Source: a bacterium (GTDB lineage: Bacteria; UBA8248). Taken from it: a stretch of DNA of 64,000 bases. The stretch spans positions 2,560,001-2,624,000 of the forward strand of contig CBDBBI010000010.1 of NCBI GenBank assembly GCA_965202625.1, written 5' to 3'. Of this stretch, positions 2,740-30,844 are shown in pieces. Position 1 is the stretch's first letter. Each line of letters opens with the position of its first letter. The notes under the pieces were generated by a model. The model was given only the letters and a program-made list of their open reading frames with translations. It was not told where the DNA came from and made no database searches. The translations under genes and the position numbers were made by a program.

Positions 2740-2765
2740 AGGGAAGGCGTCGCACGACATAAGCC

Positions 2766-4114: not shown

Positions 4115-4179
4115 GAAGATATTGATGACGTTTCCGCTTCTCCGCCACCAGATCCAGAAGAAGAGGAGCTGTCTGGGTG

Positions 4180-5274: not shown

Positions 5275-5349
5275 AATTTGACGCGCGCCTAGGGGAGGGC
5301 AGCGAACCTTTCACGTTTTCACGCTCTTTTGTCGAGGAGGTATCTGCGG

Positions 5350-7794: not shown

Positions 7795-7819
7795 AAGAAG
7801 GAAGGGGGCGAGGTCCATT

Positions 7820-10215: not shown

Positions 10216-11133
10216 TCATGCCGAGGTTTTCCGGTTTTTTCTCCCGCCGCGTGGGTGCGTCTCCCACAGGAGCTTCTCCCGCAGGGTCTGGAAGAAATCC
10301 ACCCCCATCGGGCGGATGATTCGCACGGCGAAGCGGCTTTTGCGGATTCTCACCGAATCGCCCGCCTCGAGTGCGCCTCCGGCGAAGCCGTCGAGGGTGA
10401 GGAGCACCTCCCGTCCTTGGTCCCTGGTGTACGGAAAGATGGTGATCTCCAGTTTCGCCTCCGCAGGGACGACGATGGGCCGGTTGCTGAGGGTGTGCGG
10501 GCATATCGGGTTGATGAGCATCACGTTGAGTTCCGGCAGGACGAGCGGCCCGCCCGCGGAGAGGGAATAGGCCGTGGAGCCGGTCGGGGTGGCGACGATG
10601 AGGCCGTCCGCGCGGAAGTAGCCCAGATGCCGTCCTTCCATCTGAATCTGGTATTCGACCATGCGCGCTAGGGGCCCGGTGGTGAGCACCACGTCGTTCA
10701 GCGAGTCGGATAGTTTCAGCGGCGCGTCGTTTTTGCGCACCGAGGCGCTGAGCCGCATTCTGGATTCGATGGAGAACTCCTCGTGAAGCAGTATGCGCTC
10801 AAGCGCCGGATAGAGGTCCGCCTGGGGGACGTCGGCGAGAAACCCCAGATGCCCCGTGTTGATTCCCAGGAGCAGAGGAGATTCTCCCTTGACGTGGTGC
10901 GCGGTGCGCAGCATGGAGCCGTCGCCGCCGAACACGATGACGAGGTCGGCCCGCCTGACGACCTCCTCTCTCTCGCGTCCCGTTTTTTCTCCCGCCATTC
11001 TGGCGGCGTCAAGGTCGTGCTCCACCTCAAAGCCCTTCTCTTGCAGCCAGGCGGTGAGTTCTGCGAAGTCGAGCGGGTTGTTCTGGGCCTCCGCCCATGC
11101 GGTCAAGGCGATGCGCTGAATGTTCGCAGGCAA
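10216..11133 (-). CDS. nadK: NAD(+) kinase (start approximate, TTG 11133)
   Basis: FGGDGSML, GINTGHLGFL, LNDVV, DGLIVATPTGSTAYSLSAGGP, PICPHTLSNRP; classic nadK-recN order. Confidence 0.93.
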   Translation of the reverse strand: MPANIQRIALTAWAEAQNNPLDFAELTAWLQEKGFEVEHDLDAARMAGEKTGREREEVVRRADLVIVFGGDGSMLRTAHHVKGESPLLLGINTGHLGFLADVPQADLYPALERILLHEEFSIESRMRLSASVRKNDAPLKLSDSLNDVVLTTGPLARMVEYQIQMEGRHLGYFRADGLIVATPTGSTAYSLSAGGPLVLPELNVMLINPICPHTLSNRPIVVPAEAKLEITIFPYTRDQGREVLLTLDGFAGGALEAGDSVRIRKSRFAVRIIRPMGVDFFQTLREKLLWETHPRGGRKNRKTSA

Positions 11134-11209: not shown

Positions 11210-12130
11210 TCAGGCGCGCGCGCCCCGCCTCGCGGCCTGCTTCCTTCGCCTGGGCAGACGCCGCCAGTATCGGCAGGCGTCCTGAAGGGGGCAGCCCGCG
11301 CAAAGCAGAACGTCTTTTTTGCTCGGACAGCGCTTGAGGATGCCCATTCGGGAGATGGCAAAATCGTAGCGTACCGGATCCGCAGGGTCGATGCGCTTGA
11401 GATTTTTCGTGATGTCGAGCGCCATTTTGAGGTTCGGCGTCTTCCTGTCGGTGAGCCCGAGGAGGCGGCCAATGCGAGCGACGTGGGTGTCGAGGGGAAT
11501 GACGAGCTGATGCGTCCTGGGCGTTTTCCACAGGCCGAGGTCCAGACCGTCGGCGGGCCGTATCATCCAGCGAAGGAACAGGTGGAGCCGCTTGCACGCG
11601 CCCACCCCCGCCGGATCGGGCAGAAGGTAGAGGAGGCCGCGCTTGGCGTCCCCATCCTTCGGCATCGGAAGAAAGTCAAGCAGATGGTCCCGAAATTCCT
11701 TGAGCGTCCCGTGCAGGGTTTCCGCATTCGGGCGGTAGTGCCGCAGAAACAGCGCTTCAAGCGAGCCCTCGCTTCTCAGCGCGGCCCCGAGTGCCTGGGC
11801 GAGAAGCCCGATGGCCTCCGGCCCCACCCAGCGGTGGCGCAGCCCCTGAAAAAGGCGCGCGCTTCTCTCTGGAGGGTGGCGATGCAGCGCGCTGGCCGGA
11901 TGGCCCCCCACCCGCTCCAGAACGCGTTGGACGCTCGTCCGTATGGCCGCCGCGTTGCCGAAGGCCAGCGACGCGCTGAAAAACGCGGCGATCTCCCGAT
12001 CCGGTTTCTCTTCGTAGGCGTGCGCGATTCCCAGCGGGTCGGTGGCAAGGTAGGATTCGTGATACGCGCCGGCGAGCGCGTCGAGCTTCTGCTTGAGGAG
12101 GGCGACGTTTTTGTCCGTGAGTCCCATCAA
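11210..12130 (-). CDS. TIGR02757/DUF2400 family HhH-GPD-like protein
   Basis: TDPL..DREIAA..LAFG, ACKRLHLFLRWM, DLGLW, IPLDTHV, DPVRYDFA; C-terminal Cys cluster. Confidence 0.85.
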   Translation of the reverse strand: MMGLTDKNVALLKQKLDALAGAYHESYLATDPLGIAHAYEEKPDREIAAFFSASLAFGNAAAIRTSVQRVLERVGGHPASALHRHPPERSARLFQGLRHRWVGPEAIGLLAQALGAALRSEGSLEALFLRHYRPNAETLHGTLKEFRDHLLDFLPMPKDGDAKRGLLYLLPDPAGVGACKRLHLFLRWMIRPADGLDLGLWKTPRTHQLVIPLDTHVARIGRLLGLTDRKTPNLKMALDITKNLKRIDPADPVRYDFAISRMGILKRCPSKKDVLLCAGCPLQDACRYWRRLPRRRKQAARRGARA

Positions 12131-14469: not shown

Positions 14470-15252
14470 ATGGGCGCGCTGGAGACGCTTGGGATGAAGG
14501 ATAAAGTCGTTTTGGTGACGGGCGGATCGCGCGGGGTTGGCGCCGCCATTGCGAGGCGCTTCGCCCAGGATGGCGCGCGTCTGGTTTTGAACCATCGGGT
14601 GGGAGGAGGGAGAGCTTCGCGCATGGCGGACGCGCTTTGTCGAGAGGTTGATGCCGCCGGCGCGCGCGCCGTCGCCATTCCCGCGGACATTTCCCGAAAA
14701 AACGCCGTCAAGACCATGTTCGCGCAGCTGGAGGATGAATTTGGACGACTCGACGCCCTGATCCTGAACGCGGCGCGCGCGCCCTTCAAGCCGTGGGAGA
14801 AGCTCCTGGAGCGTGACCTGAGGCTCCTGGTGGAGACGAACTTTCTGGGCAACGTGTTCTGCTTGCAGGAAGCACTTCCGCTACTCGCGCGCCGAGGGGG
14901 AGCGGTCGTGTTCATCTCCAGCCTGGGGAGCCGCTTCTATCATCCGGAGTATCCGCTGGGCCCAATGAAGGCGGCCATGGAGGCGGCGGTTCGGCATTGG
15001 GCGGAGAGTTTTGACGAGGCTGGCATATCGGTCAACGCCGTTTGCGCGGGCCTCGTCAAAACTGATTCGTTCAAGACGCTGCGAATGGTGCAACCGGATC
15101 TGGACGCGCTGCCGGAGCGTTATTTCGTATCGCCCGAGGAGGTGGCGGAGGCTGTCTTCTTTCTCGCCGGCGCGGGTGCTGATTCCATACGCGGGCAGAC
15201 GCTCGTGGTGGATAGGGGACTCAGCAACCGGCTGAACCGTCCGTTGAAATGA
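14470..15252 (+). CDS. SDR oxidoreductase, FabL-like enoyl-ACP reductase
   Basis: VTGGSRGVG, LNAA, ISSLGS, YPLGPMK, GLVKTDS; heads the FAS cluster. Confidence 0.75.
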   Translation: MGALETLGMKDKVVLVTGGSRGVGAAIARRFAQDGARLVLNHRVGGGRASRMADALCREVDAAGARAVAIPADISRKNAVKTMFAQLEDEFGRLDALILNAARAPFKPWEKLLERDLRLLVETNFLGNVFCLQEALPLLARRGGAVVFISSLGSRFYHPEYPLGPMKAAMEAAVRHWAESFDEAGISVNAVCAGLVKTDSFKTLRMVQPDLDALPERYFVSPEEVAEAVFFLAGAGADSIRGQTLVVDRGLSNRLNRPLK

Positions 15253-15395
15253 TGGAATCGACCAAAATTTCCGCAGGCGGTTGATTTTCACGCTTCTCCC
15301 TGATTGTATAGACTTTGACGAGAGCGCGTTTTCACGGTGTCCGTCCCGATAAAAGAATAGAGAGTCGCTTCAGCTTCTTCGTGTAGAGGGAAACG

Positions 15396-15959
15396 ATGTC
15401 CCAAAACCTGATCTCGGACGATACGATACTGGAGGAAGTGAAAAAGGCGATTGCCCACACTACGGGAATCGACGAGGAGACCATTGGGCCGGACAGCTCC
15501 TTGGTGGATGATCTGGACGTGTTGTCGCTGGATTTTCTGGACATCAATTTTCGTCTGGAGCAAGTGTTCGGTATCAAGATGGCGCGGAACTTCGTTCTGG
15601 AGCACGTGGAGGAGATGTTCGGCGAGGGTGTGGCCATCAGTGAGGAGAGCGAAGTGACGGAAAAGGGGGTGGAGGTCCTGAAATTGCGCCTGAATGAAGC
15701 GGCCAGGGACCTGAAGTCGGGAACCCCCGTGGACGAGCTTCCCGCCCTCGTCACGCCGAGAACGCTGGTCGGTGCGGTGCGTGAGGTTTTGGACTGCCTG
15801 TCTGAGAAGAGCCCGGCGGCGGAGGCTTGGAAAACCGAGGACCGGACGCGCATCGTGTGCTCCAAGACGGGCGATCCCGCGTCTTTGCCCAGCGGGGATG
15901 AGGTGGTGCAAAACTGGCTGAGCGAAGTGCAAGCGCAAAGGCGGCTCTTCTCCCCCTGA
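15396..15959 (+). CDS. acyl carrier protein with long C-terminal extension (AcpXL-like core)
   Basis: DSSLVDDLDVLSLDFLDINFRLEQVFGIK; 187 aa. Confidence 0.85.
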   Translation: MSQNLISDDTILEEVKKAIAHTTGIDEETIGPDSSLVDDLDVLSLDFLDINFRLEQVFGIKMARNFVLEHVEEMFGEGVAISEESEVTEKGVEVLKLRLNEAARDLKSGTPVDELPALVTPRTLVGAVREVLDCLSEKSPAAEAWKTEDRTRIVCSKTGDPASLPSGDEVVQNWLSEVQAQRRLFSP

Positions 15960-16003
15960 CGCGGCCTGCGTCCTCTCGCCCGTCTTGTCTGGAGAGCGTG
16001 TGA

Positions 16004-17314
16004 ATGGCCGGTTGCGGCAGACGAGTCGTGATCACCGGATACGGAGCGATGACGCCCCTGGGCGCGGGCGTCACCACCACGTTCGACTCCATGCGAGAGG
16101 GGCGCTCCGGAATTGACGTCATCCGACGTTTCGATCCCGAAAAACTTCCCTGCCAGATCGCCGGAGAGATAGAAGACGAGTGGATCGCCTCCCAGGAAAA
16201 CGTCGAGGGGCGCAGACTCGATAAGTTTTCTACGCGCGGAGTGCGCATGATGCGCGTCGCCGTCTCGCAGGCCGCCAGGGCGGCGCGCCTTGATGAGGTG
16301 TCTCAGAGAAGACGGGTTGGCGTCGCGCTCGGCTCCCACGGCGAGCACCCCCAGATCGAGGATTTGCTGCGCGTTTTCCCCTATTGGAAGCCCGAGGAGG
16401 GGGCGCCCTCAGGGGGCGGGTGGGACGTTGAGGCGCTCAGGCGTCGCGGCGCCTATGACTTCATGGGGTTTTTTAGAAGAAAATCGGATGTGGCGACCTC
16501 GGTAGTCGCGCTGGATTTCGACTGCCGGGGGCCGATGGTATCCATCTGTTCGGCCTGCGCGGCGGGGGCGCAGGCGATTGGCGAGTCCGTGCGTCTCATT
16601 CGGGACGGAAGGGCTGACGTCATGGTGGCGGGCGGCTGCGAGGCGACCATCACCTACGTCGGGTTTCTCGGGTTCGTCTTACTCACTGCGCTGGCGGAGA
16701 GATACGAGACCCCGCAGACCGCGTCTCGTCCCTTTGACAGGAAGCGAAACGGCTTCGTGATGTCCGAGGGGGCGGGGGCGATGATACTCGAGCGCTACGA
16801 GCACGCGCGCGCGCGCCGCGCCGACATTCTGGGCGAAGTGCTCGGCTATGGCGATTCCTCGGACGCGTTTCGCATCACCGACATGCACCCGAAGGGGCTG
16901 GGGGCGGTATTCGCCATGAAAAGAGCGCTGGCCGACGCGGGCGTCGCGCCCGAGTGCGTCGAATACGTCAACGCGCACGGCACCTCCACGCCAAAGAACG
17001 ACACGACGGAGACCAAGGCCATCAAGGAGGTGTTCGGCGCCCACGCGGAGAAGGTGCCGATCAGTTCCAATAAGTCCATGATCGGACACACCATTGGCGC
17101 GGCCGGTGCCGTCGAGGCGATTTTGACCCTGGAGGGAATGCGCCGCTCCGAAATCCTGCCCACCATCAACTATCGAAACCGCGATCCGAAGTGCGACCTA
17201 GACTACGTGCCCAATGAAACTAGGGCGCAGGCCCACCGCGTAGCCCTCTCCAATAGCTTTGGCTTTGGAGGGCAGAACGCCTGCCTGTGCCTGGGCGGCC
17301 CCGAGATCGCGTGA
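16004..17314 (+). CDS. beta-ketoacyl-ACP synthase (FabF-like, catalytic Cys present)
   Basis: SACAAG, NAHGTST, KSMIGH, SNSFGFGG. Confidence 0.92.
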   Translation: MAGCGRRVVITGYGAMTPLGAGVTTTFDSMREGRSGIDVIRRFDPEKLPCQIAGEIEDEWIASQENVEGRRLDKFSTRGVRMMRVAVSQAARAARLDEVSQRRRVGVALGSHGEHPQIEDLLRVFPYWKPEEGAPSGGGWDVEALRRRGAYDFMGFFRRKSDVATSVVALDFDCRGPMVSICSACAAGAQAIGESVRLIRDGRADVMVAGGCEATITYVGFLGFVLLTALAERYETPQTASRPFDRKRNGFVMSEGAGAMILERYEHARARRADILGEVLGYGDSSDAFRITDMHPKGLGAVFAMKRALADAGVAPECVEYVNAHGTSTPKNDTTETKAIKEVFGAHAEKVPISSNKSMIGHTIGAAGAVEAILTLEGMRRSEILPTINYRNRDPKCDLDYVPNETRAQAHRVALSNSFGFGGQNACLCLGGPEIA

Positions 17315-18495
17315 GATCTTCCCCCCTTCCCATCACCGGAGCGGGTCTGGTGACGGCGGCGGGAATCGGCGTCGCGCCCGCCTGGGAGGCGCTTTGCGCG
17401 CGCCGCTCCTTTTTGGTACTTGACCCGGACTCAGAGCTCGCCGGCTTCGCGCCGATAAGAACGGCGAGATGCGGGCGGATAGACCCGGAATCCCTCGGTG
17501 CGGATCGCCGGGCGGCCAAGCTCATGCGCGGTCATACCCACATGCTTCTGGCGGCGGTTCACGACGCGCTCAGGGACGCTCCCCTCGCTCCGGAGATGGC
17601 GGGGGCGGAGGTCGCCTTTTTCGCCGGCATGGATTCGGTCGATCCGGCGAGCGATGATTTGATGGGGGCGGTTCATAAATCAGGGGCTGAAGTGAATCTC
17701 AGGCGTTTTTTTGGCGAGGAGATGGATCGCATTCCTCCGCTTTGGCCGCTCGAGCTGTTGAACGCGATAGGTTTCAGCCAGGTGGCGATTCAACATCAAC
17801 TTCAAGGGGAGAACGCTGTTTTCAGCGCGGGTCCAGAGGCGGGCGCGCGCGCCATCTGCGAGGCGGCGGCGTCCGTTCGTTTGGGCAAGGCGAGGCTTGG
17901 GTTGGCCGCCGGAGTGAGTGGACGGATTTCCGCTCGAATGCTCGCCCGCGCGGCGATGTCCGGCGCGTTGCCCGGTGCTTGGGGGCTGGGCGAGGGTGCG
18001 GCGGTGGTGCTTTTCGGGGAGACTGTGCAACCGGAGGGAATACGCGGGTGGCTCAAGGGGCAGGCTTCGGTTCGCGCGCTTGCTAGAAGAGGGGGCCTCG
18101 CCCGGGCGATTCAAAGATCGGCCGAGACCGCGCTGTCGCTCGCTGGCCTGAGACCTGATGAGGTGGACCTTCTGGTGATTTGCGGGGAGGGGCGCGCCGA
18201 GGCGGATAGGGCGGAGGCGGAGGCGCTCTCCGCCATTTTCAAGGCGGGCAGACCTCTCCTGCTTGCCACGAAGGGCGTATTCGGCCACCTTTGGGGGGCG
18301 AGCCCGGCGCTGGACCTCATCATCGCGGCGAAGGCGTTGGCGGAGGGGGAGGTGCCCCCGCCTCACGGAATCGCGGATGAGGCGTTTCAGGGCGTAGAGC
18401 GAACGTCTGGTCGGCGCGAGATGCGAGACGCGCTCCTCCTTCTTCAGGGCTTCGGCGGCGTATGTGCGGCTTTTGTGGTGGGGAAAAACCCTTGA
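17311..18495 (+). CDS. ketosynthase-like protein lacking catalytic residues (chain-length-factor-like)
   Basis: ITGAGLVT, GEGAA, KGVFGHLWGAS; Cys site reads SAGPEAG; GTGA overlap with upstream KS. Confidence 0.8.
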   Translation: MRSSPLPITGAGLVTAAGIGVAPAWEALCARRSFLVLDPDSELAGFAPIRTARCGRIDPESLGADRRAAKLMRGHTHMLLAAVHDALRDAPLAPEMAGAEVAFFAGMDSVDPASDDLMGAVHKSGAEVNLRRFFGEEMDRIPPLWPLELLNAIGFSQVAIQHQLQGENAVFSAGPEAGARAICEAAASVRLGKARLGLAAGVSGRISARMLARAAMSGALPGAWGLGEGAAVVLFGETVQPEGIRGWLKGQASVRALARRGGLARAIQRSAETALSLAGLRPDEVDLLVICGEGRAEADRAEAEALSAIFKAGRPLLLATKGVFGHLWGASPALDLIIAAKALAEGEVPPPHGIADEAFQGVERTSGRREMRDALLLLQGFGGVCAAFVVGKNP

Positions 18496-18510
18496 CGGGG
18501 GAATGGCGGA

Positions 18511-18963
18511 TTGCGTTTTCTCTTGTTCGATCAAATCCAGGAGGCGGTGCGCGGGGAGCGTATTCTGGGCCTCAAGACGTTTCCTTTGTCCGAAATCTAT
18601 CTGAACGCGCATTTTAGGCGCGCGCCCCGGATTCCCGGATCCATTCTGATAGAGGCGATGGCGCAGATTGCGGGTTGGCTCGTAGTCTATACGTATGATT
18701 TCAGGACCTCGTGCGTCATCTCGCTCATCAATGGCGTGGAGGTGGCGAGCGACCTGCGTCCGGGAGTTTCTTTGGAGATTCATGGGGAGATGATTGATAC
18801 GAACGAGCGGGCGAGCCTGTGCCGCGCGCGGGTCGAGAAAGACGGTGTCGTGTTGGCCAGGGTGGAGCGATTCGTGTATCCCCACTTTCCCAACGATGAT
18901 CCCAAGTCGCTGAAAGAGCGATTCAGGCGCTACGGATGGTTGGGGTTCGAGGCGGGTTCATGA
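18511..18963 (+). CDS. FabZ/FabA-like 3-hydroxyacyl-ACP dehydratase
   Basis: FLLFD, HF..PRIPGSILIEAMAQ hot-dog motif. Confidence 0.85.
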   Translation: MRFLLFDQIQEAVRGERILGLKTFPLSEIYLNAHFRRAPRIPGSILIEAMAQIAGWLVVYTYDFRTSCVISLINGVEVASDLRPGVSLEIHGEMIDTNERASLCRARVEKDGVVLARVERFVYPHFPNDDPKSLKERFRRYGWLGFEAGS

Positions 18964-20225
18964 GCACCCAGACGCTCGTCACCGGTCTCGGCATGGTGAC
19001 CTCTCTTGGGGCGGACGTTGAAACTTCATGGCGAGGGGCATTGGCTGGCGAGTCGGGTTTAAGGCCGATTGCGTCCTTCGACGCGAGCGCGCTGCCCATC
19101 GCCGGGGCGGGCGAGGTTTCTGAGGAGGCGATGCGCCTCATCAGGGAGAGATTGCCTGAGGAATACGCGGGTGAGGGGGAGCGCAGGACGCTGTTCGCGC
19201 TTGACGCTGTGCGCGGCGCGATGGAGGACGCCGGTCTGCGTGTCGGGGATTATGCTCCCGAACGCGCCGGCGTGGTGATGGGGACCGGTCTGAGCACTTA
19301 TCGATTGGAGGATTTCTGCGCTTGGGCGGACCCTGAAAATGGGTTTGACGCTGCGCGTTTTGCAAAGGAATTCCACAGGACGCAAGATTCAGGTTACTTC
19401 AAGAATCCGCCCGAGCGCGCGACGTCCCGAATTGCCGAATGGTTTGACCTCGCCGGTCCCAGCGCTACTATCACCTCCGCCTGTGCGGCGGCGGCGCAGG
19501 CGATAGGCCTTGGAATGCGTATGATTCGCCGGGGAGAGGCGGACGTGATTCTTTGCGGCGGGGCTGACTCGATGATCCATCCTATCGGGATGGCTATATT
19601 CCTTCTGCTGGGTGCCGCCTCGAAATCGCGGGTCCCGATTTGCCGCCCATTTGACAGGAAACGCTCTGGCCTTGCTGTTGGCGAGGGGGCGGGCGTCGTC
19701 GTCCTGGAATCTGCGGCGCACGCGCGCGCGCGCGGTGCGGCGCCTTATGCCATTCTTTCAGGTTATGGCGCGAGCATGGACGCCCACCAGGTCACGGCTC
19801 CGCATCCGGCGGGCCGCGGCGCCGCTCGATCGATGAGCGAGGCGTTGAAGGATGCGGGCTCCGCTCCCCACGATATCGCCTACGTCAACGCGCACGGCAC
19901 GGGCACGAAGCTCAACGATCCGGCCGAGACCCGGGCGATTCGCGAGGTTTTTGGGGCGCGGGCGGATGCGCTAGCCGTGAGTTCTTCCAAGTCCATGATC
20001 GGGCACCTGATCGCCGCGTGCGGCGCGCCTGAGTTCATCTTTACGACCTTGAGCGTGGCGCGCGATATGGTGCATCCTACGAGGGATTTGGAGAATCCGG
20101 ATCCGAAGTGCGATCTCGACTATGTGTCTGAGGGAGCGAGAAACATGCCTGTTCCGGCCGCCATGACGAACTCCTTTGGCTTCGGCGGGCAAAACGCCAC
20201 TCTCCTCATCAGAAAGGCGGCTTAG
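18960..20225 (+). CDS. beta-ketoacyl-ACP synthase (FabF-like, catalytic Cys present)
   Basis: SACAAA, NAHGTGT, KSMIGH, TNSFGFGG. Confidence 0.92.
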   Translation: MSTQTLVTGLGMVTSLGADVETSWRGALAGESGLRPIASFDASALPIAGAGEVSEEAMRLIRERLPEEYAGEGERRTLFALDAVRGAMEDAGLRVGDYAPERAGVVMGTGLSTYRLEDFCAWADPENGFDAARFAKEFHRTQDSGYFKNPPERATSRIAEWFDLAGPSATITSACAAAAQAIGLGMRMIRRGEADVILCGGADSMIHPIGMAIFLLLGAASKSRVPICRPFDRKRSGLAVGEGAGVVVLESAAHARARGAAPYAILSGYGASMDAHQVTAPHPAGRGAARSMSEALKDAGSAPHDIAYVNAHGTGTKLNDPAETRAIREVFGARADALAVSSSKSMIGHLIAACGAPEFIFTTLSVARDMVHPTRDLENPDPKCDLDYVSEGARNMPVPAAMTNSFGFGGQNATLLIRKAA

Positions 20226-20978
20226 ATGAAGATTGACTTGAGTGGAAAAATTGCGCTGGTGACAGGAGGCGGCCGGGGCATCGGTCGCGCCTGCTGTGTG
20301 GGCCTTGCCGAGGCGGGAGCGTCCGTGGCGATCAACTACAGCCGCTCGGCGGAGGCCGCCGAGGAAGTGAGAGGAGAGATCGAAGCGGCGGGCGGCGAGG
20401 CGCGCGCCTACCGGGCCGACGTCTCCTCCTTTGACGCGGTGGGGGAGATGTTCGAGAAGGTGAAGGCGGATTTCGGCACGCTCGACATTCTGGTGAACAA
20501 CGCGGGCGTGGTTCACGATGCCTTGCTGCTCACGATGAAACCCGCCGGCTGGCGCAAGGTGATCGGCGTAAGTTTGGACGGCACCTATCACTGCACGAAA
20601 CTCGCCGGCGAGATCATGCTCAGGAAACGTTCTGGCAAGGTGATCACCATCTCCTCGGTCATGGCGATCTCGGGCGGGGGCGGCCAGACGAACTACGCCT
20701 CCGCCAAGGCGGGGCTGGTCGCCTTCACGCGCGCCTGCGCCGCCGAGATGGGAAAGCGCGGGATACAGTTCAACGCCGTCTTGCCGGGGATGATCGTCAC
20801 CGACATGAGCGAACGTGTGCGCGAGAAAGCGGGAGAGGCGATTCTGGCGCGCATTCCGGCGGGCCGCTTCGGCACGCCTGCGGACGTGGCCAGGCTCGTA
20901 TTGTTCTTGGCGTCTTCGGAATCGGATTACATCAATGGCCAGGCGATAGCCGTGGACGGCGGCATGCTCACTGGATGA
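20226..20978 (+). CDS. fabG: 3-oxoacyl-ACP reductase (FabG-like)
   Basis: TGGGRGIG, NNAG, NYASAK, PGMIVTDM. Confidence 0.9.
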   Translation: MKIDLSGKIALVTGGGRGIGRACCVGLAEAGASVAINYSRSAEAAEEVRGEIEAAGGEARAYRADVSSFDAVGEMFEKVKADFGTLDILVNNAGVVHDALLLTMKPAGWRKVIGVSLDGTYHCTKLAGEIMLRKRSGKVITISSVMAISGGGGQTNYASAKAGLVAFTRACAAEMGKRGIQFNAVLPGMIVTDMSERVREKAGEAILARIPAGRFGTPADVARLVLFLASSESDYINGQAIAVDGGMLTG

Positions 20979-20996
20979 GGACGGGGGTTTTGGCGA

Positions 20997-21413
20997 ATGC
21001 GCCTGTATCAGGGGGTGGATTTGGTAGAGGTGGCGCGCTTGCGAAAAGCCTGTGAGCGTCACGATGCGTTTCAGGAGGACGTATTCACTGAAGCCGAGCG
21101 CACCTATTGCGAGAAGCACCGAAATCCTTATCCCCATTTCGCCGCCCGCTTCGCGGCGAAAGAAGCCTGTCTCAAAGCCTTCGGCGTTGGTCTGTCAGGG
21201 CCTGACGGCCTGGGCGGAAGAGGTCGCCTGCGCGAGATCGAGGTGGAATCGGCGGCGTCGGGCAAGCCTGCGCTGCGGCTGCACGGCTCAATGGAGCGCA
21301 TGCGCGTGCGAAAGAGGATCACCCAGTCCACCATTTCGATGAGCCATACTTTGGAGCTAGCTATGGCGCAGGTCATTCTCGTGGGAGATGGCGCGCCGGA
21401 GGGGTTGCGCTAG
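20997..21413 (+). CDS. acpS: holo-ACP synthase
   Basis: GVDLVEV, FAARFAAKEA.KA.G, SMSH. Confidence 0.92.
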   Translation: MRLYQGVDLVEVARLRKACERHDAFQEDVFTEAERTYCEKHRNPYPHFAARFAAKEACLKAFGVGLSGPDGLGGRGRLREIEVESAASGKPALRLHGSMERMRVRKRITQSTISMSHTLELAMAQVILVGDGAPEGLR

Positions 21414-21468
21414 AGGTGGTTTCGGCAACCCCGCCGCGCGAGGGGTGAGTGGGTCGGAGGAATCATTT

Positions 21469-21921
21469 TTGAGATATATGTTGGTGGACAGGGTGGCGGA
21501 GTGGAAGGCGGGAGAATCCATCCAGGGGGTGAAGAACATCACCATGAGCGAGGATTTTTTAGAGTTTCATTTTCCGCGGTTTCCCGTCATGCCGGGCGCG
21601 CTGATATTCGAGGGGTTGGTCCAGCTCGCTGGCTGGCTCGAGGCGGCCAGCTCGGATTTCACGAAATGGGTTCTTTTGGAGAGGGCCCGCAGTGTGAAAT
21701 ACTATGGATTCGCCTTTCCCGGAGATCAGGTTCTCCTGAGAGTGGAAGCGTGCGCGGAGGAGGGGGGATGGAAGGACTTCAAGGGTATGGCCGCCGTGGA
21801 GGGAGAGCGTCGGGTGGCCGTTGAGTTTAGCGGAAAGCTGGTGGCCCTCGCGGATTACGAGGACCCTGAGGAGCAACGCCATCACTTCCGCGTTCTCAGC
21901 CGAGAGATTCGGCTGGGTTAG
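21469..21921 (+). CDS. second FabZ-like dehydratase (start approximate)
   Basis: LVDRV, KNITMSE, HFPRFPVMPG..E, PGDQ. Confidence 0.85.
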   Translation: MRYMLVDRVAEWKAGESIQGVKNITMSEDFLEFHFPRFPVMPGALIFEGLVQLAGWLEAASSDFTKWVLLERARSVKYYGFAFPGDQVLLRVEACAEEGGWKDFKGMAAVEGERRVAVEFSGKLVALADYEDPEEQRHHFRVLSREIRLG

Positions 21922-21933
21922 GCGGAATGCGCG

Positions 21934-23232
21934 ATGGAAGGCAGAGAGGTTTGGATCACGGGGGTGGGGCTGCTCACCTCTCTGGGCGCGAGCGTGTCGG
22001 AGAACTGGAAGGCACTTTGCGCCGGCAGAAGCGGTGTCGCCTGTCATCGGGACGGAGAGTGCGCGTCCTTGCCGAATCATCTCTCCTATCACGGCAGGGT
22101 CGCCGGCTATGAAGACCCACCCGAGGTGCCGTCCGGGCTCGCGAGCCAGCGTAAATTCTTGAACAGAAGCTCCATCCTCGGGCTTCATGCGGCCAGGGAG
22201 GCGGCCTCTTGCGCTGGCCTCGATATGGGCGAGATTGCCCCGGAGCGAAAAGCCCTCTACGTGGGCTCCGGTGATTTCACGAAGATGGGCTATGAGGATT
22301 TCTACGCTCCCTTGAAGGAGACGGCCGGCGAAGCATGGAACTTTCCAAAAACGGAGGACCTCAACCAAGCGGTGCTCCACGGAGTGAGCCCCTTTTTTTT
22401 ACTCGAGGGCCTGTCCAACAATCTTTTTAGCTATCTCTCGGCCATTTATAAGTCCATGGGGCCAAACGGCAGTTTCTCTAGTCTCTCCTCTTGCGGGGCG
22501 CAGGCACTGGAAAACTGTGAGCGCGTGGTGCGCTCCGGAGAGGCCGACGTTGGTTTGGTCGTGGGCTGCGGGAGCTGGGCGCATCCTATGATGCTTTTGG
22601 AACTCGACGGTCTGGGCGTTCTCTCTCAGGCGAAGGAGGGTGCTGCGTCGTTTCGGCCGTTTGATAGGAGGCGCGATGGATTCTTCCCCGGCGAGGGGGG
22701 GGCCGCTCTGGTGATGGAGGCGGCCGAACGCGCCCGGGCGCGAGGCGCGCAACCCTTGGGCCGCGTCGTTGGAACGGCGAATTGTCAGGAATTCTCGCGG
22801 GAGCGTCACATTCCCGTTCCCAAGGGAGCGGTGGGCTTCTCCGTGGAATCCGCTATGGCTGAGGCGGGTCTTGGCCCTGACGCGCTTGCTTTCGTCCTTC
22901 TCCACGGAAGCGGGACGCCGAGAGGGGACGCGGGCGAGTTGTCCGCCTTGCTGGAATACCGGGACAAGGCGGAGACTTTGTGTCCTCTCGCCGGTTGGAA
23001 GCCCTACACGGGGCACATGGGTTCGGCCAGTGATTTGGGAGAAATCATTCTGGGGTTGTCCGCCCTGAGAGAGGGCCGTCTTCCTCCCACGCCGGGCCTT
23101 GAGCGCAAAGACGATGCTTTCGCCGCTCTTTGTATTCCTGATGAGGAGTGCTCCGTCGTCGGAAGCGCGTTTTTGTCCTTGAGCCACGGCATCGGCGGGC
23201 AATCCTCCGCTACCGTCGTCGTAGCGCGGTGA
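21934..23232 (+). CDS. ketosynthase-like protein, catalytic Cys position apparently Ser (CLF-like)
   Basis: WITGVG, RPFDRRRDG..GEG, LHGSGT, YTGH, HGIGG; active-site loop SLSSCGAQA versus canonical SACAAGAQA. Confidence 0.8.
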   Translation: MEGREVWITGVGLLTSLGASVSENWKALCAGRSGVACHRDGECASLPNHLSYHGRVAGYEDPPEVPSGLASQRKFLNRSSILGLHAAREAASCAGLDMGEIAPERKALYVGSGDFTKMGYEDFYAPLKETAGEAWNFPKTEDLNQAVLHGVSPFFLLEGLSNNLFSYLSAIYKSMGPNGSFSSLSSCGAQALENCERVVRSGEADVGLVVGCGSWAHPMMLLELDGLGVLSQAKEGAASFRPFDRRRDGFFPGEGGAALVMEAAERARARGAQPLGRVVGTANCQEFSRERHIPVPKGAVGFSVESAMAEAGLGPDALAFVLLHGSGTPRGDAGELSALLEYRDKAETLCPLAGWKPYTGHMGSASDLGEIILGLSALREGRLPPTPGLERKDDAFAALCIPDEECSVVGSAFLSLSHGIGGQSSATVVVAR

Positions 23233-24212
23233 ATAAGTCCACAAGGCGAAACAAGAGAAAGCGCAGCAAGGACAAGAGCGCGTTTCACCAGTGGGTGGAG
23301 TACGCCTTGGCCATCTCGCTGCTGAAACTGATTCGTCTGCTGCCTTATAGGGTTTGCCGAGCGATTTCCGTCGTAGGGGGAGAGATGATTTTTCGCCTCA
23401 TCCCGAGAAGAAGACGCATCGCGCGCGCCAATCTGCGCCTGGCGTTTCCCGATCTCGGCGAGGCGGAGCGTCTGATCCTGGCGAGGCGCAGTTGCCGTTC
23501 GTTCGTCCTCACGTGTCTGGAAGGAGCGAAATTTTTCGCCCGTTTCGAGCCGGAGCGGGCCAGAGCGATGCTGACAAATGCCGTCGACGGGGCGGAGGAA
23601 ATTTTGAAAAAAGTACGCGCTGCTCATGAAGGCGCACGCGGGTGCGTCTTCGTCACGCCGCATCTGGGAAACTGGGAATGCCTCGTCCATGCGGGCGCGC
23701 TGGCGGGCGTCCCGCTAACCATTCCCGTGAGGTCCCTGGACAATCGAAGGCTGGAGAGCGCGCTGCGCAAGATGCGCGCGGCTTCCGGACACGAGATCAT
23801 CTCTAAGAGGAACGCTTTTTTTCATCTGCGAGAGGCACTCCGCAAGGGCCGCTCGGTGGCGATTCTGGCGGATCAGAACGCGGGCGCAGAGGGAATCGCC
23901 GCGCCGTTTTTCGGCGAGCCGGCCAGTACGACGCCCGCCCCCGCCGCACTCGCGATTCTTTACGACCGCCCCATCGTTTTGGTCGCGTGTCTGAGAGGGG
24001 AAGGCGATGGCCGGCGCTACGAAGCCTTTTTGAGCGAGCCGATAACGCCCGACGTGGGCGCGCGAAGCGCGAAGGAGGAGATCGCAAGGCTCACGACGGC
24101 GGTGAACGAGGAGATGGAAAGCATGATTCGCAAAGGACCGGACCAGTATCTATGGCTTCATGATAGATGGAAGATCGCCAAGGGTGGCGGGCCGGCTCAC
24201 GAGGCGGGCTGA
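23229..24212 (+). CDS. LpxL/HtrB-family (lipid A late) acyltransferase
   Basis: NLRLAFP, HLGNWE, LADQ, PFFG, PDQYLWLHDRWK; GTGA overlap with upstream KS-like gene. Confidence 0.9.
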   Translation: MNKSTRRNKRKRSKDKSAFHQWVEYALAISLLKLIRLLPYRVCRAISVVGGEMIFRLIPRRRRIARANLRLAFPDLGEAERLILARRSCRSFVLTCLEGAKFFARFEPERARAMLTNAVDGAEEILKKVRAAHEGARGCVFVTPHLGNWECLVHAGALAGVPLTIPVRSLDNRRLESALRKMRAASGHEIISKRNAFFHLREALRKGRSVAILADQNAGAEGIAAPFFGEPASTTPAPAALAILYDRPIVLVACLRGEGDGRRYEAFLSEPITPDVGARSAKEEIARLTTAVNEEMESMIRKGPDQYLWLHDRWKIAKGGGPAHEAG

Positions 24213-24604
24213 GGGGAGGACGCGGATTTTTTCAGGCGCGCGAGGAAGGGGACGCCCAGTTTGTCGAGTTTCGCCTCGAGTTTTTTCGTGCAGTCGCAAT
24301 CGCCGCAAACGGGATATCCCTCGCAATCCTCAGGCTTTCGGGCAAAGCGCACGTCGATCTGCTCGAAATACGCCTCCCAGTAAGGCAATTCCTCATATAG
24401 CTCATAGCCCGGTCCGAACGCCTCTCGGCAGTAGCAGACCTCAACCCAGCGCGTCTCGCCCTGCTCCGTGAGCCTCGCCTCTTTCATGCACTTCAAGAAG
24501 GTTTCGTGCGCGATGGAGCCGCGCCCGAGGGCGCCGGATTCGATGGCTTCGAGCAGAGCCGCGCTTTTGCCCTCAATCACTTTCCCCCGCACGAGGTATC
24601 GCAT
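24197..24604 (-). CDS. conserved hypothetical Cys-rich protein
   Basis: GGGGAGAG RBS; WVEVCYC and CEGYPVCGDCDC motifs. Confidence 0.7.
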   Translation of the reverse strand: MRYLVRGKVIEGKSAALLEAIESGALGRGSIAHETFLKCMKEARLTEQGETRWVEVCYCREAFGPGYELYEELPYWEAYFEQIDVRFARKPEDCEGYPVCGDCDCTKKLEAKLDKLGVPFLARLKKSASSPQPAS

Positions 24605-26219: not shown

Positions 26220-27452
26220 ATGGTGGATCCGCATGGTTCTCGGGTCATATCCTTCGTCATGGCGGGCGGCGCCGGAAGCAGGCTGCACCCCCTGACGGTC
26301 GCCCGCGGCAAGCCCGCCGTTCCTTTCGGGTCGAAATACCGGATCATTGATTTCGTGCTGAGCAACTTGGTGAACTCAGGCTATCAGTCCATTTATGTGC
26401 TGGTGCAGTACCTGGCCCAATCCCTGATCGATCATCTGCGGCGTTCCTGGAACATCAGCGGATCGCTGGATCGCAACTTCGTGACCGCCGTTCCGCCGCA
26501 GGGACGCTCCGGAGAGTTCTGGTTCAAGGGAACGGCCGACTCCATTCATCAGAACAGAAACTTGGTGACGGACCACGCGCCCGACATCGTGCTGGTGTTC
26601 GGGGCGGATCACATCTACCGCATGGATGTAAGACAGATGGTTCGCTTCCATCTCGAGCGCGGGGCGGACGCGACGATATCGGCCCTGCCCGCGCCGCTCG
26701 ATGAGGCGTGCGGCTTCGGGGTGCTCGCAGTGGACGAGGAGGGACGGGTGGAGCGCTTCGATGAAAAGCCTCCACGCCCCCGGCCCATACCGGGCGACTC
26801 CTCACGCGCCCTTTGTTCCATGGGGAATTACGTATTCTCCGCCGGCGTGTTGATGGACGCGCTCATCAGCGACGCAGCGCGCGAGGGAGAGCACGATTTC
26901 GGGCGCACCATCATTCCCGCCTTGCTGGGTGAGCACAAGAAACTCTACGCCTATGATTTTTTCAAAAACGAGATTCCCGGCGTCAAGGTGAGCGAGGAGA
27001 GGGGCTACTGGCGCGATGTGGGAACGATCAAGACCTATTGGGAGACGCAGATGGATTTGCTCGGGGAGACGCCGCGCCTCGATCTGGGGAATCCCGACTG
27101 GCCGATACGCACCGGAGCCTATCCGGGGCCCGGTAGTCGCGTCGTGTCCACGCAGGTGGAAAGCGCCCTTATCGGCGAGGGGTGTCGGATCGTGGGCGCG
27201 CGGATTGAGCGCTCCGTCATCGGACGCGGCGTGATAATCGAAAAAGGGGCGGAAATCACGGATTCCATCGTTATGGACCACACCCACATCGGGGTCGGAG
27301 CGAAGCTGCGCAAGGCGATCGTGGATCGATTCAATCAGATCGAGGCGGGCGCTTGCGTCATGGATGCGAACGCCGACGCCCACCCCGGCGCCCTGTCCGA
27401 TCCTTCCGGAGTCATCGTCTTGCCGCGCGGCTTCACCCGCCCTGTCATATAG
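26220..27452 (+). CDS. glgC: glucose-1-phosphate adenylyltransferase
   Basis: MAGGAGSRL.PLT..KPAVPFG, GTADS, DHIY, FDEKP, SMGNY, YWRDVGT. Confidence 0.95.
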   Translation: MVDPHGSRVISFVMAGGAGSRLHPLTVARGKPAVPFGSKYRIIDFVLSNLVNSGYQSIYVLVQYLAQSLIDHLRRSWNISGSLDRNFVTAVPPQGRSGEFWFKGTADSIHQNRNLVTDHAPDIVLVFGADHIYRMDVRQMVRFHLERGADATISALPAPLDEACGFGVLAVDEEGRVERFDEKPPRPRPIPGDSSRALCSMGNYVFSAGVLMDALISDAAREGEHDFGRTIIPALLGEHKKLYAYDFFKNEIPGVKVSEERGYWRDVGTIKTYWETQMDLLGETPRLDLGNPDWPIRTGAYPGPGSRVVSTQVESALIGEGCRIVGARIERSVIGRGVIIEKGAEITDSIVMDHTHIGVGAKLRKAIVDRFNQIEAGACVMDANADAHPGALSDPSGVIVLPRGFTRPVI

Positions 27453-27462
27453 GATACGTCTC

Positions 27463-28950
27463 ATGCGCCTGGCGGACGTTCGGACGCGCGCGGAGGATTT
27501 TCTCGTCGAATTCCGAAAGGATGGCTACGAAGTCGGTGCGGGTCTGAGGGCAGAGACCCGCCTCGGCGAGATACTCTTCAAATACGCCGATCTCTTCACG
27601 CGCGAGAACGTAGAGGCTCTCCACTCTCTCTCGGACTTTGAGGATGGGGAGGAAGAATCCGCGCGTCTCTGCGCGCTCCTTGGTTTTTTGGCCTTTGGCA
27701 CGATACGCGGAGCGAGCAGGGAATGGAGCGAGCATGCGCTTCGCTTCGAGATGCGAACCATGGTGAGGACGGCTGAGGGTACTTACATTCCCTATCGACA
27801 GAGTGCCGTCACGCTTTTGAACGAACCGCGCCGGGAGAGGCGGATTTTTCTGGAAAACGCCCGCTCGGAGGTTTTGGCGGAGAAGAACGGGTTTTTGGAG
27901 AAAATGCACCGCATTGCTCACGAGATGGCGGAGAGCCTGAATTTTGGCGGCTACCTGGGGATGATGGCGAGACTCAAGCCCTATCCGCTTCTGCCGATTC
28001 GTGAGGAGATGCGCCGGTTTCTCGCGCGGACGGAGATGCTTTACGGAGAGGCGATGGAAGAGGCGATGAGAGGGACGGGCGTCCCCCCCGCATCCGCGCA
28101 TCGCCACGACGCCCTCCGTCTTTTCCGGGGCGTGGAGTTCGATCGCCTATTTCCGGCGGAGAAGATCGAACCCTCGGCGCGGCGGGTTTGCAGGGCGATG
28201 GGTCTCGACCTCTCGGCGCGAGGCAGGGTGTGCCTGGACTTTGCGGAGCGTCCTTTGAAGAGTCCACGCGCGTTTTGCGCCTCCGTGCGCGTGCCGCAGG
28301 AGGTCTATCTCGTCATCCGGCCCCGGGGCGGCCATGATGATTATCGCGCGTTCTGGCACGAGCTGGGCCATGCCCTGCACTTCGCCAACGTGGCGGCGGA
28401 CGCGGATTTCGAGTCGAGGCGCCTCGGCGACAACTCCGTGACCGAGGGTTTCGCCATGCTCTTCGATCATCTTTTGCTGAACCCGCTCTGGCTCGTCGAC
28501 GTCCTCGGCGGAGAGGAGCGCGACTACGCGGCGTTCTTGCGCCGCCACGCGCTTTTTGAGTTGTACATGTTGAGACGCTATGCGGCGAAAATAGATTATG
28601 AACTCACCCTTCATGAAGACGCGGAACTCTCGGGCAAGGACGTCGCGTATCGGAAGAAGCTGAGTGCGGCGACGGGAGTGGATTTTCCTGCAGTCGCCTA
28701 TCTCGACGACGTGGACCCGTTTTTCTATTGCGCGAATTATCTGCGGGCGTGGATGCTCCAGGCCCAGATGGCGGAGGTCTTGAAGACGAGGTTTGGGGAG
28801 AAGTGGTGGTGCGAGGCGGGGAGCGGCGGCTTTTTGATGGATTTGTGGAGGGAGGGACAACGCTTCGACGGCGACGCCCTCTCCCGGCGTCTCGGCTACC
28901 GGCGGCTCGCCACCGAGCCGCTGGAGGCGCAGATCAGAAGCTTGATGTGA
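27463..28950 (+). CDS. M3/gluzincin-like zinc metallopeptidase
   Basis: KSPRAFC, HELGH zincin motif, downstream TEGFA. Confidence 0.75.
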   Translation: MRLADVRTRAEDFLVEFRKDGYEVGAGLRAETRLGEILFKYADLFTRENVEALHSLSDFEDGEEESARLCALLGFLAFGTIRGASREWSEHALRFEMRTMVRTAEGTYIPYRQSAVTLLNEPRRERRIFLENARSEVLAEKNGFLEKMHRIAHEMAESLNFGGYLGMMARLKPYPLLPIREEMRRFLARTEMLYGEAMEEAMRGTGVPPASAHRHDALRLFRGVEFDRLFPAEKIEPSARRVCRAMGLDLSARGRVCLDFAERPLKSPRAFCASVRVPQEVYLVIRPRGGHDDYRAFWHELGHALHFANVAADADFESRRLGDNSVTEGFAMLFDHLLLNPLWLVDVLGGEERDYAAFLRRHALFELYMLRRYAAKIDYELTLHEDAELSGKDVAYRKKLSAATGVDFPAVAYLDDVDPFFYCANYLRAWMLQAQMAEVLKTRFGEKWWCEAGSGGFLMDLWREGQRFDGDALSRRLGYRRLATEPLEAQIRSLM

Positions 28951-28997: not shown

Positions 28998-29594
28998 TTA
29001 AAACGCCTTGGCTTCCTCTTCGCTGATTTTCTTCTCGCAGGCAGTGTTTGACGCAAGATGAAACTCCACTGCTGCGTATCCGCTTCTCGATACTGCTTGT
29101 GCGGCCACGACAAGCCTTATGACGTTTTCGACAGGACGGAATCCGTCTTTCGTCCGCCAGACGTAGGCGTAAAGTCTTTCGTTTTTTTCTATTGCTATCG
29201 TCCATTCATTTGCCTTATCCCAAATGGAGCCGGTTTTCAGAAAATCGTTTTTTTCCCCCGTCCCATATTTTTTGGCGAGTTGGCCGTGCAGTTCGTCGAT
29301 TTTGGATCGCAGGCTTGTGCCGTAAGAGTCATTCTGAATTGTCGCGCCAATTCCTTTGATGATGCAGATTCCGACGCCTTCAACGTATTGGAGCAAGTAA
29401 GTTTCAAATGCGCTGTGGGGGCGTGGGGCCGACGCACAATTCCACCAATAGCTGTTCTTTTTCATCTTTTTGCAGAACCCGTAAGTTTTGGGGTGTTTGC
29501 CGACGTCGAAACCGAAAGGCTCTCCGGCGAATGCTGGGTTCGCCGTTGCGAAAATCATCCAGGTCGTTATCCATCCCACAAGCAAGCGTTTCAT
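28998..29594 (-). CDS. secreted hypothetical protein (lower GC)
   Basis: AAGGAG RBS; signal peptide MKRLLVGW..PAFAG; PFG motif; APRPHSAF. Confidence 0.7.
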   Translation of the reverse strand: MKRLLVGWITTWMIFATANPAFAGEPFGFDVGKHPKTYGFCKKMKKNSYWWNCASAPRPHSAFETYLLQYVEGVGICIIKGIGATIQNDSYGTSLRSKIDELHGQLAKKYGTGEKNDFLKTGSIWDKANEWTIAIEKNERLYAYVWRTKDGFRPVENVIRLVVAAQAVSRSGYAAVEFHLASNTACEKKISEEEAKAF

Positions 29595-29696
29595 GGCGTT
29601 TGTTCTCCTTTGACAGACTGGGGGTCCGCGCCTCGCGCTTATCCGCCATTCGATAGCCACCAAAGCGGCAGATATATTTCTCCCGTTCTATCTCCT

Positions 29697-30761: not shown

Positions 30762-30844
30762 CTCCTCATATCGTTTGCGTCCAGGCTGTTCGGGAGGGGA
30801 TAATCCTCGGCTCCGCCGTTCCCATCATGCATCGGGAGAATCCC

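Follow-up and report, generated by a model that had tools for sequence, protein, structure and literature searches.

A composite operon with an accessory type II fatty acid synthase module with two ketosynthase/CLF-like gene sets and a putative link to lipid A acylation

The rhizobial and alphaproteobacterial acpXL-fabZXL-fabF2XL-fabF1XL-(adh)-lpxXL cluster makes the very-long-chain fatty acid of lipid A, a C26-C30 (omega-1)-hydroxy acid; in rhizobia that lack AcpXL, LpxXL is still able to accept ordinary chains. In the mycobacterial type II fatty acid synthase (FAS-II), KasA/HadAB and then KasB/HadBC act in successive chain-length windows with a common MabA and InhA and with AcpM, an acyl carrier protein (ACP) that has a C-terminal extension. 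Cluster I of anammox bacteria comprises amxACP, amxFabZ, and an amxFabF2/amxFabFmut heterodimer (10.64898/2026.05.19.726425; PMC10139942), and this pairing of a FabF-type ketosynthase (KS) with a dead KS is reported to decarboxylate malonyl-ACP (preprint 10.64898/2026.05.19.726425). Here, we describe an operon within a 64,000-nucleotide stretch of DNA from an uncultured Nitrospinota bacterium (positions 2,560,001 to 2,624,000 of contig CBDBBI010000010.1, assembly GCA_965202625.1, lineage UBA8248; hereafter, the window). Eleven co-directional + strand open reading frames (ORFs) fill window positions 14470-24212 and were assigned with Pfam and NCBIfam. From 5' to 3' they encode a FabL-like enoyl-ACP reductase (ER), an ACP, KS1, a protein resembling a chain-length factor (CLF1), a dehydratase (DH1), KS2, a ketoreductase (KR), the holo-ACP synthase AcpS, DH2, CLF2, and an LpxL-family acyltransferase.

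We conclude that the operon is a composite of three core lipid genes (KR, AcpS, and LpxL) and an interleaved eight-gene accessory FAS-II module. As read from its genes, the operon encodes a full reductive cycle (KS, KR, DH, and ER) with its own carrier and two paralogous KS/CLF/DH triads. The gene content, the active-site states, the sole-copy AcpS and LpxL, a natural deletion in a sister species, and the co-inheritance of an LpxL type with the module are all observed. We consider it somewhat probable, at roughly 55%, that this FAS-II works in two stages under CLF control and supplies lipid A with a special acyl chain, probably a long one.

Operon organization and comparison with described systems

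Coordinates of the operon genes are given in Table 1. The most likely starts were chosen from ortholog starts, ribosome-binding sites, and overlaps, and with these starts the successive junctions measure +143, +44, -4, +15, -4, 0, +18, +55, +12, and -4 bases. An earlier reading of the same sequence (the initial annotation) had named these 11 genes and described them as mostly overlapping or abutting; Pfam and NCBIfam recovered all 11 on the + strand, and the description is correct given the junction lengths. A Pfam scan of the cluster and its flanks identified no radical SAM domain or phytoene-desaturase gene in the window, in agreement with the initial annotation, which had noted that the cluster has no radical SAM gene. 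The scan detected no FabD, FabH, or thioesterase in the cluster.

Table 1. Window coordinates of the operon genes and of a terminator-like element.
Feature	Position	Strand	Basis and remarks
FabL-like ER (short-chain dehydrogenase/reductase)	14470..15252	+	Pfam adh_short_C2; NCBIfam FabL best
ACP, 187 amino acids (aa), expanded	15396..15959	+	PP-binding matches residues 14-70 only
KS1, FabF-type, Cys-His-His	16004..17314	+	fabF model, 450.8 bits
CLF1, catalytically dead KS homolog	17287..18495	+	Likely start 17311, GTGA overlap with KS1
DH1, FabZ-like dehydratase	18511..18963	+	Pfam/NCBIfam; His and Glu motif readable in sequence
KS2, FabF-type, Cys-His-His	18936..20225	+	Likely start 18960, ATGA overlap with DH1
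KR, FabG-type 3-oxoacyl-ACP reductase	20226..20978	+	Best TIGR01830 match in genome
AcpS, holo-ACP synthase	20997..21413	+	Sole PF01648 match in genome
DH2, FabZ-like dehydratase	21388..21921	+	Likely start TTG 21469, GGAGG upstream of start
CLF2, KS homolog, Ser for active Cys, His-Lys-His kept	21934..23232	+	Pfam/NCBIfam, alignment
LpxL-family lipid A late acyltransferase	23148..24212	+	PF03279 (Lip_A_acyltrans), 167 bits; likely start 23229, GTGA overlap with CLF2, 327 aa
Terminator-like hairpin and T run	24264..24289	+	52 bases past LpxL stop; weak evidence

The ER scores 183.8 bits on the NCBIfam FabL model (cut-off 328), with the next family at 142, and its nearest solved relative is 3oic (FabL, an NADPH enoyl-ACP reductase) at 131.6 bits versus 103 for the next. 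KS1 is 42% identical to the housekeeping FabF and reaches 438 bits on the FabF subfamily model NF005589, above the cut-off of 387. Among solved relatives of CLF1, FabF is best at 48.1 bits and the actinorhodin CLF 1tqy_B scores 44.8 bits. Identities between paralogs are 41% for KS1/KS2, 35% over 85 aa for DH1/DH2, and 27% for CLF1/CLF2.

Judged from its genes, the operon resembles the rhizobial acpXL cluster in having a dedicated ACP, a FabZ-type dehydratase, two FabF-type genes, and a PF03279 acyltransferase in last position. Unlike that cluster, which has one DH and two KSs, it has two KS/CLF/DH triads, its own FabL-like ER, an embedded FabG and AcpS, and an ACP of 187 aa with an insert and a zinc-ribbon domain, and it occurs in different phyla. 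The operon probably functions much as the rhizobial acpXL system does, without belonging to that system. With anammox Cluster I, the operon shares a FabF-type KS with a dead homolog, a dedicated ACP, a FabZ variant, and a fatty-acid rather than polyketide context, and the anammox heterodimer is a model for how an operon without FabH might be primed. The operon differs in having two KS/dead-KS pairs, one of which keeps Ser-His-His, and a full KR, DH, and ER set together with LpxL, and it has neither a phytoene-desaturase-like gene nor a B12 radical SAM gene. Both the rhizobial and the anammox comparison had already been drawn in the initial annotation and are apt as analogies.

Two KSs, two dehydratase sets, one KR, one ER, and a dedicated, extended ACP also recall the mycobacterial FAS-II, a functional likeness for which no orthology is claimed. 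In contrast to that system, the KS partners here are CLF-like dead homologs, each dehydratase is a single FabZ-like protein, and lipid A, not mycolic acid, is the presumed acceptor. Pairing of an active KS with a Cys-less homolog is likewise known from type II polyketide synthase (PKS) KS/CLF proteins (actinorhodin, 1tqy), whereas the operon KSs are FabF-like, the reduction cycle is full and includes an ER, cyclases and aromatases are absent, and there is no Gln at the Cys position of CLF1. Aryl-polyene (ape) clusters have a KS, a CLF, a further KS, two dehydratases, one KR, and an acyltransferase, as does the operon; unlike them, the operon has an ER, a single ACP, and no starter-unit, glycosyltransferase, or export genes.

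A natural deletion delimits the accessory module

The genus of the window organism was sampled through 22 other species. CLF1 orthologs were found in 21 of these congeners, and 21 of the 22 encode exactly one PF03279 match (the exception, G017, is 79% complete). That match lies within ~150 bases of CLF2 in 20 of 21 congeners, the exception being the sister species G019. The G019 genome is 98% complete in 2 contigs, and at the same locus (PAC2 to glgA-glgC) only KR, AcpS, and LpxL are left, with 84, 80, and 73% identity, respectively. It has one FabF-type gene where the window genome (G000) has three, and the special ACP, KS1, and KS2 were found nowhere in it.

Scars of the loss are evident in locus L095 (G019:C1:1675000-1694999) at 10284-10600 and 11772-12010. 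Upstream of KR, the pre-ER region is fused to the last ~60 bases of KS2, and between AcpS and LpxL the first ~190 bases of DH2 are fused to the last ~70 of CLF2. A tree of KR, AcpS, and LpxL places G019 as sister to the window genome (Shimodaira-Hasegawa-like approximate likelihood ratio test [SH-aLRT] support of 95), nested among module-bearing species and with end branches of 0.19 for G019 and 0.17 for the window. The scars and the nested position indicate that the deletions in G019 are secondary. Two of them removed exactly ER, ACP, KS1, CLF1, DH1, KS2, DH2, and CLF2, which delimits a dispensable eight-gene accessory FAS module, and the spared KR, AcpS, and LpxL look like core functions. 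Retention of LpxL without the special ACP parallels the behavior of rhizobial LpxXL.

The window genome (3.09 Mb, 99.7% complete) has its primary FAS operon, plsX-fabH-fabD-acpP-fabF-rnc, at C10:2708800-2714500 (locus L103), with a FabF (C10:2712497-2713771) that scores 634 bits on the fabF model. The cluster is a second FAS-type system beside this housekeeping FAS, in support of the initial annotation. No fabG is present in the plsX-fabH-fabD-acpP-fabF operon (none between fabD and acpP), and the best TIGR01830 (FabG) match of the genome is the cluster KR at 279.7 bits (next, 249.2; neither reaches the cut-off of 297.75). This best FabG candidate sits 130 kb from the primary FAS operon, inside the accessory cluster, and the cluster KR probably doubles as the housekeeping FabG. 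No phosphopantetheinyl transferase other than the cluster AcpS was found in the genome, and the cluster LpxL is its only PF03279 match. The cluster cannot be called self-contained, as it had been, because it is devoid of FabD and FabH (and of a thioesterase) and holds the only AcpS, the best FabG, and the only LpxL-family gene of the genome.

LpxC, LpxB, LpxK, and WaaA are present in the window genome, with lpxB, lpxK, and waaA grouped at 2742-2746 kb close to FabZ. Between lpxB and waaA is a DUF374 gene; we take DUF374 to be the LpxJ family of late acyltransferases, and the genome would therefore encode a second, non-LpxL late acyltransferase. A tblastn search of the genome with the cluster KSs and DHs recovered just one further FabF and one FabZ and revealed no FabA/FabB-type pair. 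FabK (TIGR03151) was not found in the window genome or in G019 at E <= 1e-10. Both genomes have a fatty-acid desaturase family gene, and an oxygen-dependent route to unsaturated acids exists.

The wider distribution of the operon was examined through a scan of one genome per species, which returned 80 related loci. All 11 genes occur in the window's order in 30 loci, 41 have a contiguous subset in that order (many being cut by contig ends), and 9 differ by one undetected or mislabeled gene. The records are labeled as Nitrospinota (including Nitrospinaceae), Tectomicrobia, Nitrospirota/Thermodesulfovibrionia, NC10, Desulfobacterota, and Chloroflexota (one bin). LpxL is the last gene in 30 of 30 complete loci. 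Five module-bearing genomes from other lineages were also compared, and the top PF03279 match is the cluster LpxL in all five and the only match in one of them.

The window LpxL has the PF03279 domain, a His-x4-Asp/Glu motif, and an N-terminal membrane anchor, and it occurs in a Raetz-pathway genome. From the start at 23229, a basic stretch is followed by a hydrophobic helix, and the best solved relative is Acinetobacter baumannii LpxM (5kn7, E 3.2e-12), with which the HxxxxE motif aligns. The protein is below every NCBIfam equivalog cut-off (best, 128.8 versus 273). The PF03279 match and the lipid A pathway of the genome uphold the view of the initial annotation that the cluster ends in a lipid A-type acyltransferase. 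A branch with a support of 100 separates 21 module-linked LpxLs (that of G019 included) from 7 LpxLs of module-less relatives, some of which belong to the same order and class.

Active-site states were compared in alignments of 21 rows per paralog and 9 housekeeping FabFs. Cys-His-Lys-His and a gate Phe are conserved in 21 of 21 rows of both KS1 and KS2. The Cys position of CLF1 is A, P, G, or S in all 21 rows, with no Gln there, and the first His is kept in 17 and the second in 16 of the 21; the window CLF1 has Pro at the Cys position and Cys at the first His. In CLF2, the Cys position is Ser in 20 of 20 genuine rows and His, Lys, and His are invariant (the 21st row was a mislabeled duplicate of a KS1 sequence and was set aside). 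The two KSs with Cys-His-His and two without the Cys that had been read from the window alone thus recur across the alignments. A tree of 93 rows, comprising the four cluster paralogs and the 9 housekeeping FabFs, was obtained by a quick search with SH-aLRT support only and with long branches flagged. CLF1, KS2, and housekeeping FabF each fall on one side of a branch with a support of 100, as do KS1 and CLF2 once the mislabeled row is set aside. These clades, which for the four cluster paralogs each extend across phyla, together with the separate primary operon, place the KSs apart from the housekeeping FabF, whereas the initial annotation would have been undermined had they grouped with it as the only FAS.

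Each active KS has a Cys-less homolog as a possible partner, and the KS1 and CLF1 genes adjoin with an overlap of 4 bases. A predicted KS2-CLF2 complex scored 0.90 (best of 3 controls, 0.00), a pass that may only show likeness because KS dimers have already been solved. The corresponding pass mark is reached by 116 of 157 solved complexes and by 2 of 215 mismatched pairs, and the KS2-CLF2 prediction runs had a contact agreement of at least 69% and a partner predicted local distance difference test (pLDDT) value of at least 83.

Orthologs of the special ACP are 185-192 aa long in every phylum, and Ser44 in the motif SLDFLD is invariant in 25 of 25. ACPs from Nitrospirota, NC10, and Desulfobacterota have CxxC..CxxC in the C-terminal part, and the Nitrospinota and Tectomicrobia copies retain one Cys. 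In an AlphaFold (AF2) model of the window ACP (pLDDT 91.9, predicted TM-score 0.87), the carrier fold is predicted to span residues 5-135 (~78 aligned), with helices at 8-23, 44-58, 67-75, and 121-132, of which III and IV are separated by an insert of ~45 residues. A hairpin and a helix make up the modeled C-terminal domain, which we identify as a degenerate zinc ribbon. Foldseek with this model returned no match at E <= 0.001; the best match, a lead only, was the specialized acyl carrier protein RPA2022 of Rhodopseudomonas palustris (E 1.9e-3), presumably an AcpXL-type ACP. Pfam found nothing in the ACP extension beyond PP-binding at E up to 10, and a protein atlas matched the ACP only to unnamed PP-binding clusters of similar length, which is a lead and not evidence. 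A profile search recovered 368 cluster representatives at E <= 1e-10 and 24 at E <= 1e-30, and all five distant full-length family members that were read keep four Cys. On two short metagenome contigs (L137 and L138), KR-ACP-DH-KS genes are arranged around one distant zinc-ribbon ACP, and this arrangement suggests a wider family of dedicated FAS systems around the zinc-ribbon carrier type.

Proposed pathway and competing explanations

In the pathway that we propose, AcpS would activate the special ACP and the housekeeping FabD would load it with malonate. By analogy with anammox amxFabF2/amxFabFmut, a KS/CLF pair might prime synthesis by decarboxylation of malonyl-ACP, the module being without FabH, and CLF2 (Ser-His-His) would be the likeliest decarboxylase. 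The two KS/CLF/DH triads, with a common KR and ER, would extend the reduced chain in two chain-length stages. Two-stage elongation had been proposed in the initial annotation from the doubled KS/CLF and DH genes, and the two paralogous triads fit it; the polyunsaturated product that it had also entertained is unlikely because a FabL-like enoyl reductase belongs to the module. The finished chain, probably long or very long and perhaps hydroxylated, would then be passed by the LpxL-type enzyme from the special ACP onto Kdo2-lipid IVA, where it would form one secondary chain, and the LpxJ-type enzyme from the lpx operon would add the other. Where the module has been lost, as in G019, LpxL presumably reverts to ordinary acyl-AcpP.

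Several points weigh against this pathway. Every biochemical step in it, the acceptor, and the chain are inferred. G019 keeps LpxL, AcpS, and KR without the module, LpxL need not require the special ACP, and a strict dependence of LpxL on it is excluded in G019. The acyltransferase may use an ordinary ACP, a case that the initial annotation had named as refuting its reading. Because KR-AcpS-LpxL is retained there, the linkage of these genes with the module may partly reflect co-transcription with essential genes. Groups in the LpxL tree were defined by the very feature that was counted, and just 7 module-less LpxLs were sampled. Complex prediction cannot separate KS2-CLF2 from other KS-family pairings, and the module exists in split or partial forms in some Nitrospirota loci.

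Model scores likewise count against the proposal, in that the module proteins are below every NCBIfam equivalog cut-off. On NF005079, which we take to be the AcpXL model, the special ACP scores 50.2 bits (cut-off 83) over residues 12-71 only. NF005076 and NF005084 are presumably the FabF1XL and FabF2XL models; KS1 scores 342 bits on the former (cut-off 629) and CLF2 72 bits on the latter (cut-off 320). For all four KS-family proteins, generic FabF models give higher scores than these two, and LpxL scores 129 bits on NF005120 (cut-off 273), which we take to be rhizobial as well.

RNA-library contigs can contain DNA and cannot prove a single transcript. Such contigs (4 libraries from one study, >= 99% identity) give partial cover of 10 of the 11 genes and reach just the 5'-most 15 bases of AcpS. 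The junctions that they span are ACP-KS1, KS1-CLF1, CLF1-DH1, KS2-KR, KR-AcpS, and DH2-CLF2. Gaps in cover, for example at 18863-19764 in 3 of 4 runs and at 23373-23823 in 4 of 4, led to no conclusion.

The special chain could instead be destined for a phospholipid, a different outer-membrane glycolipid, a free lipid, or some other acceptor, in which case FabG, AcpS, and LpxL would be housekeeping genes that just share a transcript with the module. We regard this as unlikely, though worth keeping in view. The KR-AcpS-LpxL set of G019 is intact with normal branch lengths after loss of the module, AcpS and LpxL are adjacent in a distant module-less genome (G036), and neighbors in other phyla include MlaA/MlaC as well as a GT2 glycosyltransferase and an LPG-synthase-like protein, all of which would suit a different acceptor. 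However, under six phylum labels the module is inherited together with one LpxL type, which differs from the LpxLs of relatives that have no module. The terminal position of LpxL, which overlaps CLF2 by 4 bases, is fixed, and the genes next to the module include no other conserved acyltransferase, thioesterase, or exporter. It is improbable that the operon is instead an alternative housekeeping FAS, that is, a condition-specific route to ordinary or unsaturated acids with no special product. A dedicated 187-aa ACP is maintained across phyla, two dead or altered KS partners would be superfluous for ordinary chains, the module is dispensable in G019, and the KSs form clades separate from housekeeping FabF. 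These features outweigh, in our view, the KS1 score above the NF005589 cut-off, the sharing of KR and AcpS with primary metabolism, and the tblastn search with the cluster KSs and DHs that saw no FabA/FabB-type pair. A role in unsaturated fatty-acid synthesis in particular is less likely because the window genome and G019 both have a desaturase-family gene.

A pigment pathway of the aryl-polyene, flexirubin, or xanthomonadin type, or another type II PKS, could also have its product anchored by the acyltransferase, a prospect that we hold to be very improbable. KS and CLF-like pairs, two dehydratases, one KR, and an acyltransferase are what such a pathway would use, and the flexirubin FlxB model gives the KR 232 bits, although this is below the 340-bit cut-off of that model and below the score on FabG models. 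Moreover, the KSs score highest on FabF models, the FabL-like enoyl reductase is a conserved member, and the cluster and its flanks have no adenylation or ammonia-lyase starter enzyme, second ACP, glycosyltransferase, or LolA-like or MMPL exporter. We give almost no credence to a relative of the anammox candidate ladderane pathway or of another radical-SAM-modified lipid pathway. The dedicated ACP, the FabZ variant, and the FabF/dead-FabF pair are common to the operon and anammox Cluster I, and one locus (L068) has a B12-binding radical SAM gene. Yet the window has no radical SAM or phytoene-desaturase gene, L068 alone among the 8 inserts examined carries a radical SAM gene, and no anammox-labeled record appears among the 120 CLF1 relatives listed or the 80 loci. 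In addition, the anammox dead KSs are substituted otherwise, the Cys being replaced by Val or Phe and the His residues by Asn and Glu (PMC2649909).

Were the lipid A pathway that we favor correct, several environmentally important and mostly uncultured phyla, among them nitrite oxidizers, sulfate reducers, and NC10 methane oxidizers, would build part of their outer membrane with a dedicated synthase, and the product would affect membrane permeability, host interaction in sponges, and the interpretation of lipid biomarkers. Only tentatively, and with considerable doubt, do we propose that the module is the first complete reductive FAS outside anammox bacteria with CLF-set chain length, with two KS/CLF/DH triads, an ACP of a new class that combines an insert with a zinc ribbon, and an undescribed lipid A chemotype in Nitrospinota, Thermodesulfovibrionia, NC10, and their allies. 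On this reading, the secondary chain might, for example, be very long and possibly membrane-spanning or hydroxylated, and it would be a lineage-specific 3-hydroxy or long-chain fatty-acid biomarker. Natural KS/CLF pairs in fatty-acid synthesis, of which the operon has two, are a principle otherwise reported only in the 2026 anammox preprint, and the operon ACP has an unexplored architecture. The natural deletion in G019 is a ready-made comparison for lipidomics.

Related loci and other features of the window

Upstream of the operon are PAC2, a response regulator, Dtd, NAD kinase, and RecN, and downstream are glgA and glgC, all unrelated housekeeping genes. A promoter and terminator scan of the region returned site counts no higher than in shuffles. 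The closest named records to the cluster are Nitrospinota metagenome-assembled genomes, and near-identical DNA is present in two runs labeled as sponge metagenome. Because the best holder of this DNA may be the source sample of the window, these runs do not give independent support for a sponge habitat. Named database copies are all annotated as 'hypothetical', 'phosphopantetheine-binding', or 'acyl carrier protein' and come from metagenome bins. A tblastn search of a plasmid collection with CLF2 returned only 8 Streptomyces KSs at 30-32% identity and no related annotated cluster. Literature searches outside supplements found no paper on this operon, and five lipid-related terms are absent from the text of a Nitrospinota comparative-genomics paper (PMC10839748).

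Several Nitrospirota loci (L035, L037, L041, L085, and others) contain only ER-ACP-KS1-CLF1-DH1, or only CLF1-DH1-KS2-...-LpxL, despite up to 10 kb of flank. The B12-binding radical SAM gene of L068 (L068:8684-9988) lies between DH1 and KS2 in a locus without AcpS and recalls anammox lipid clusters; it is the only radical SAM gene in the 8 inserts. Inserts with three chemotaxis receptors, a DNA methylase, and unnamed ORFs appear unrelated. No conserved extra partner was found in the flanks of nine loci from other phyla, where neighbors vary between phyla. A gene of the NMO family, which includes FabK-type enoyl reductases, is located just upstream of ER in a Thermodesulfovibrionales locus (L082:5537-6865), and MlaA and MlaC, which are outer-membrane lipid asymmetry genes, are located upstream in another (L042:4878-6916).

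Elsewhere in the window, G+C content is 0.47-0.57 at 2001-8000, 50001-52000, and 58001-60000 versus about 0.60-0.65 in the remainder, and these low-G+C stretches may be acquired islands. The ORFs at 2001-8000 have no Pfam match apart from one weak match to a type I restriction enzyme R protein N-terminal domain. Downstream of glgC, two + strand ORFs of 528 and 581 aa (27364-28950 and 29058-30803) belong to no Pfam family, and the 528-aa ORF has a weak partial match to M3 oligoendopeptidase models only. A 361-aa ORF at 37981-39066 (-) includes a FAS1-like dehydratase (double hot-dog) region, and a 1443-aa ORF is present at 53226-57557 (+).

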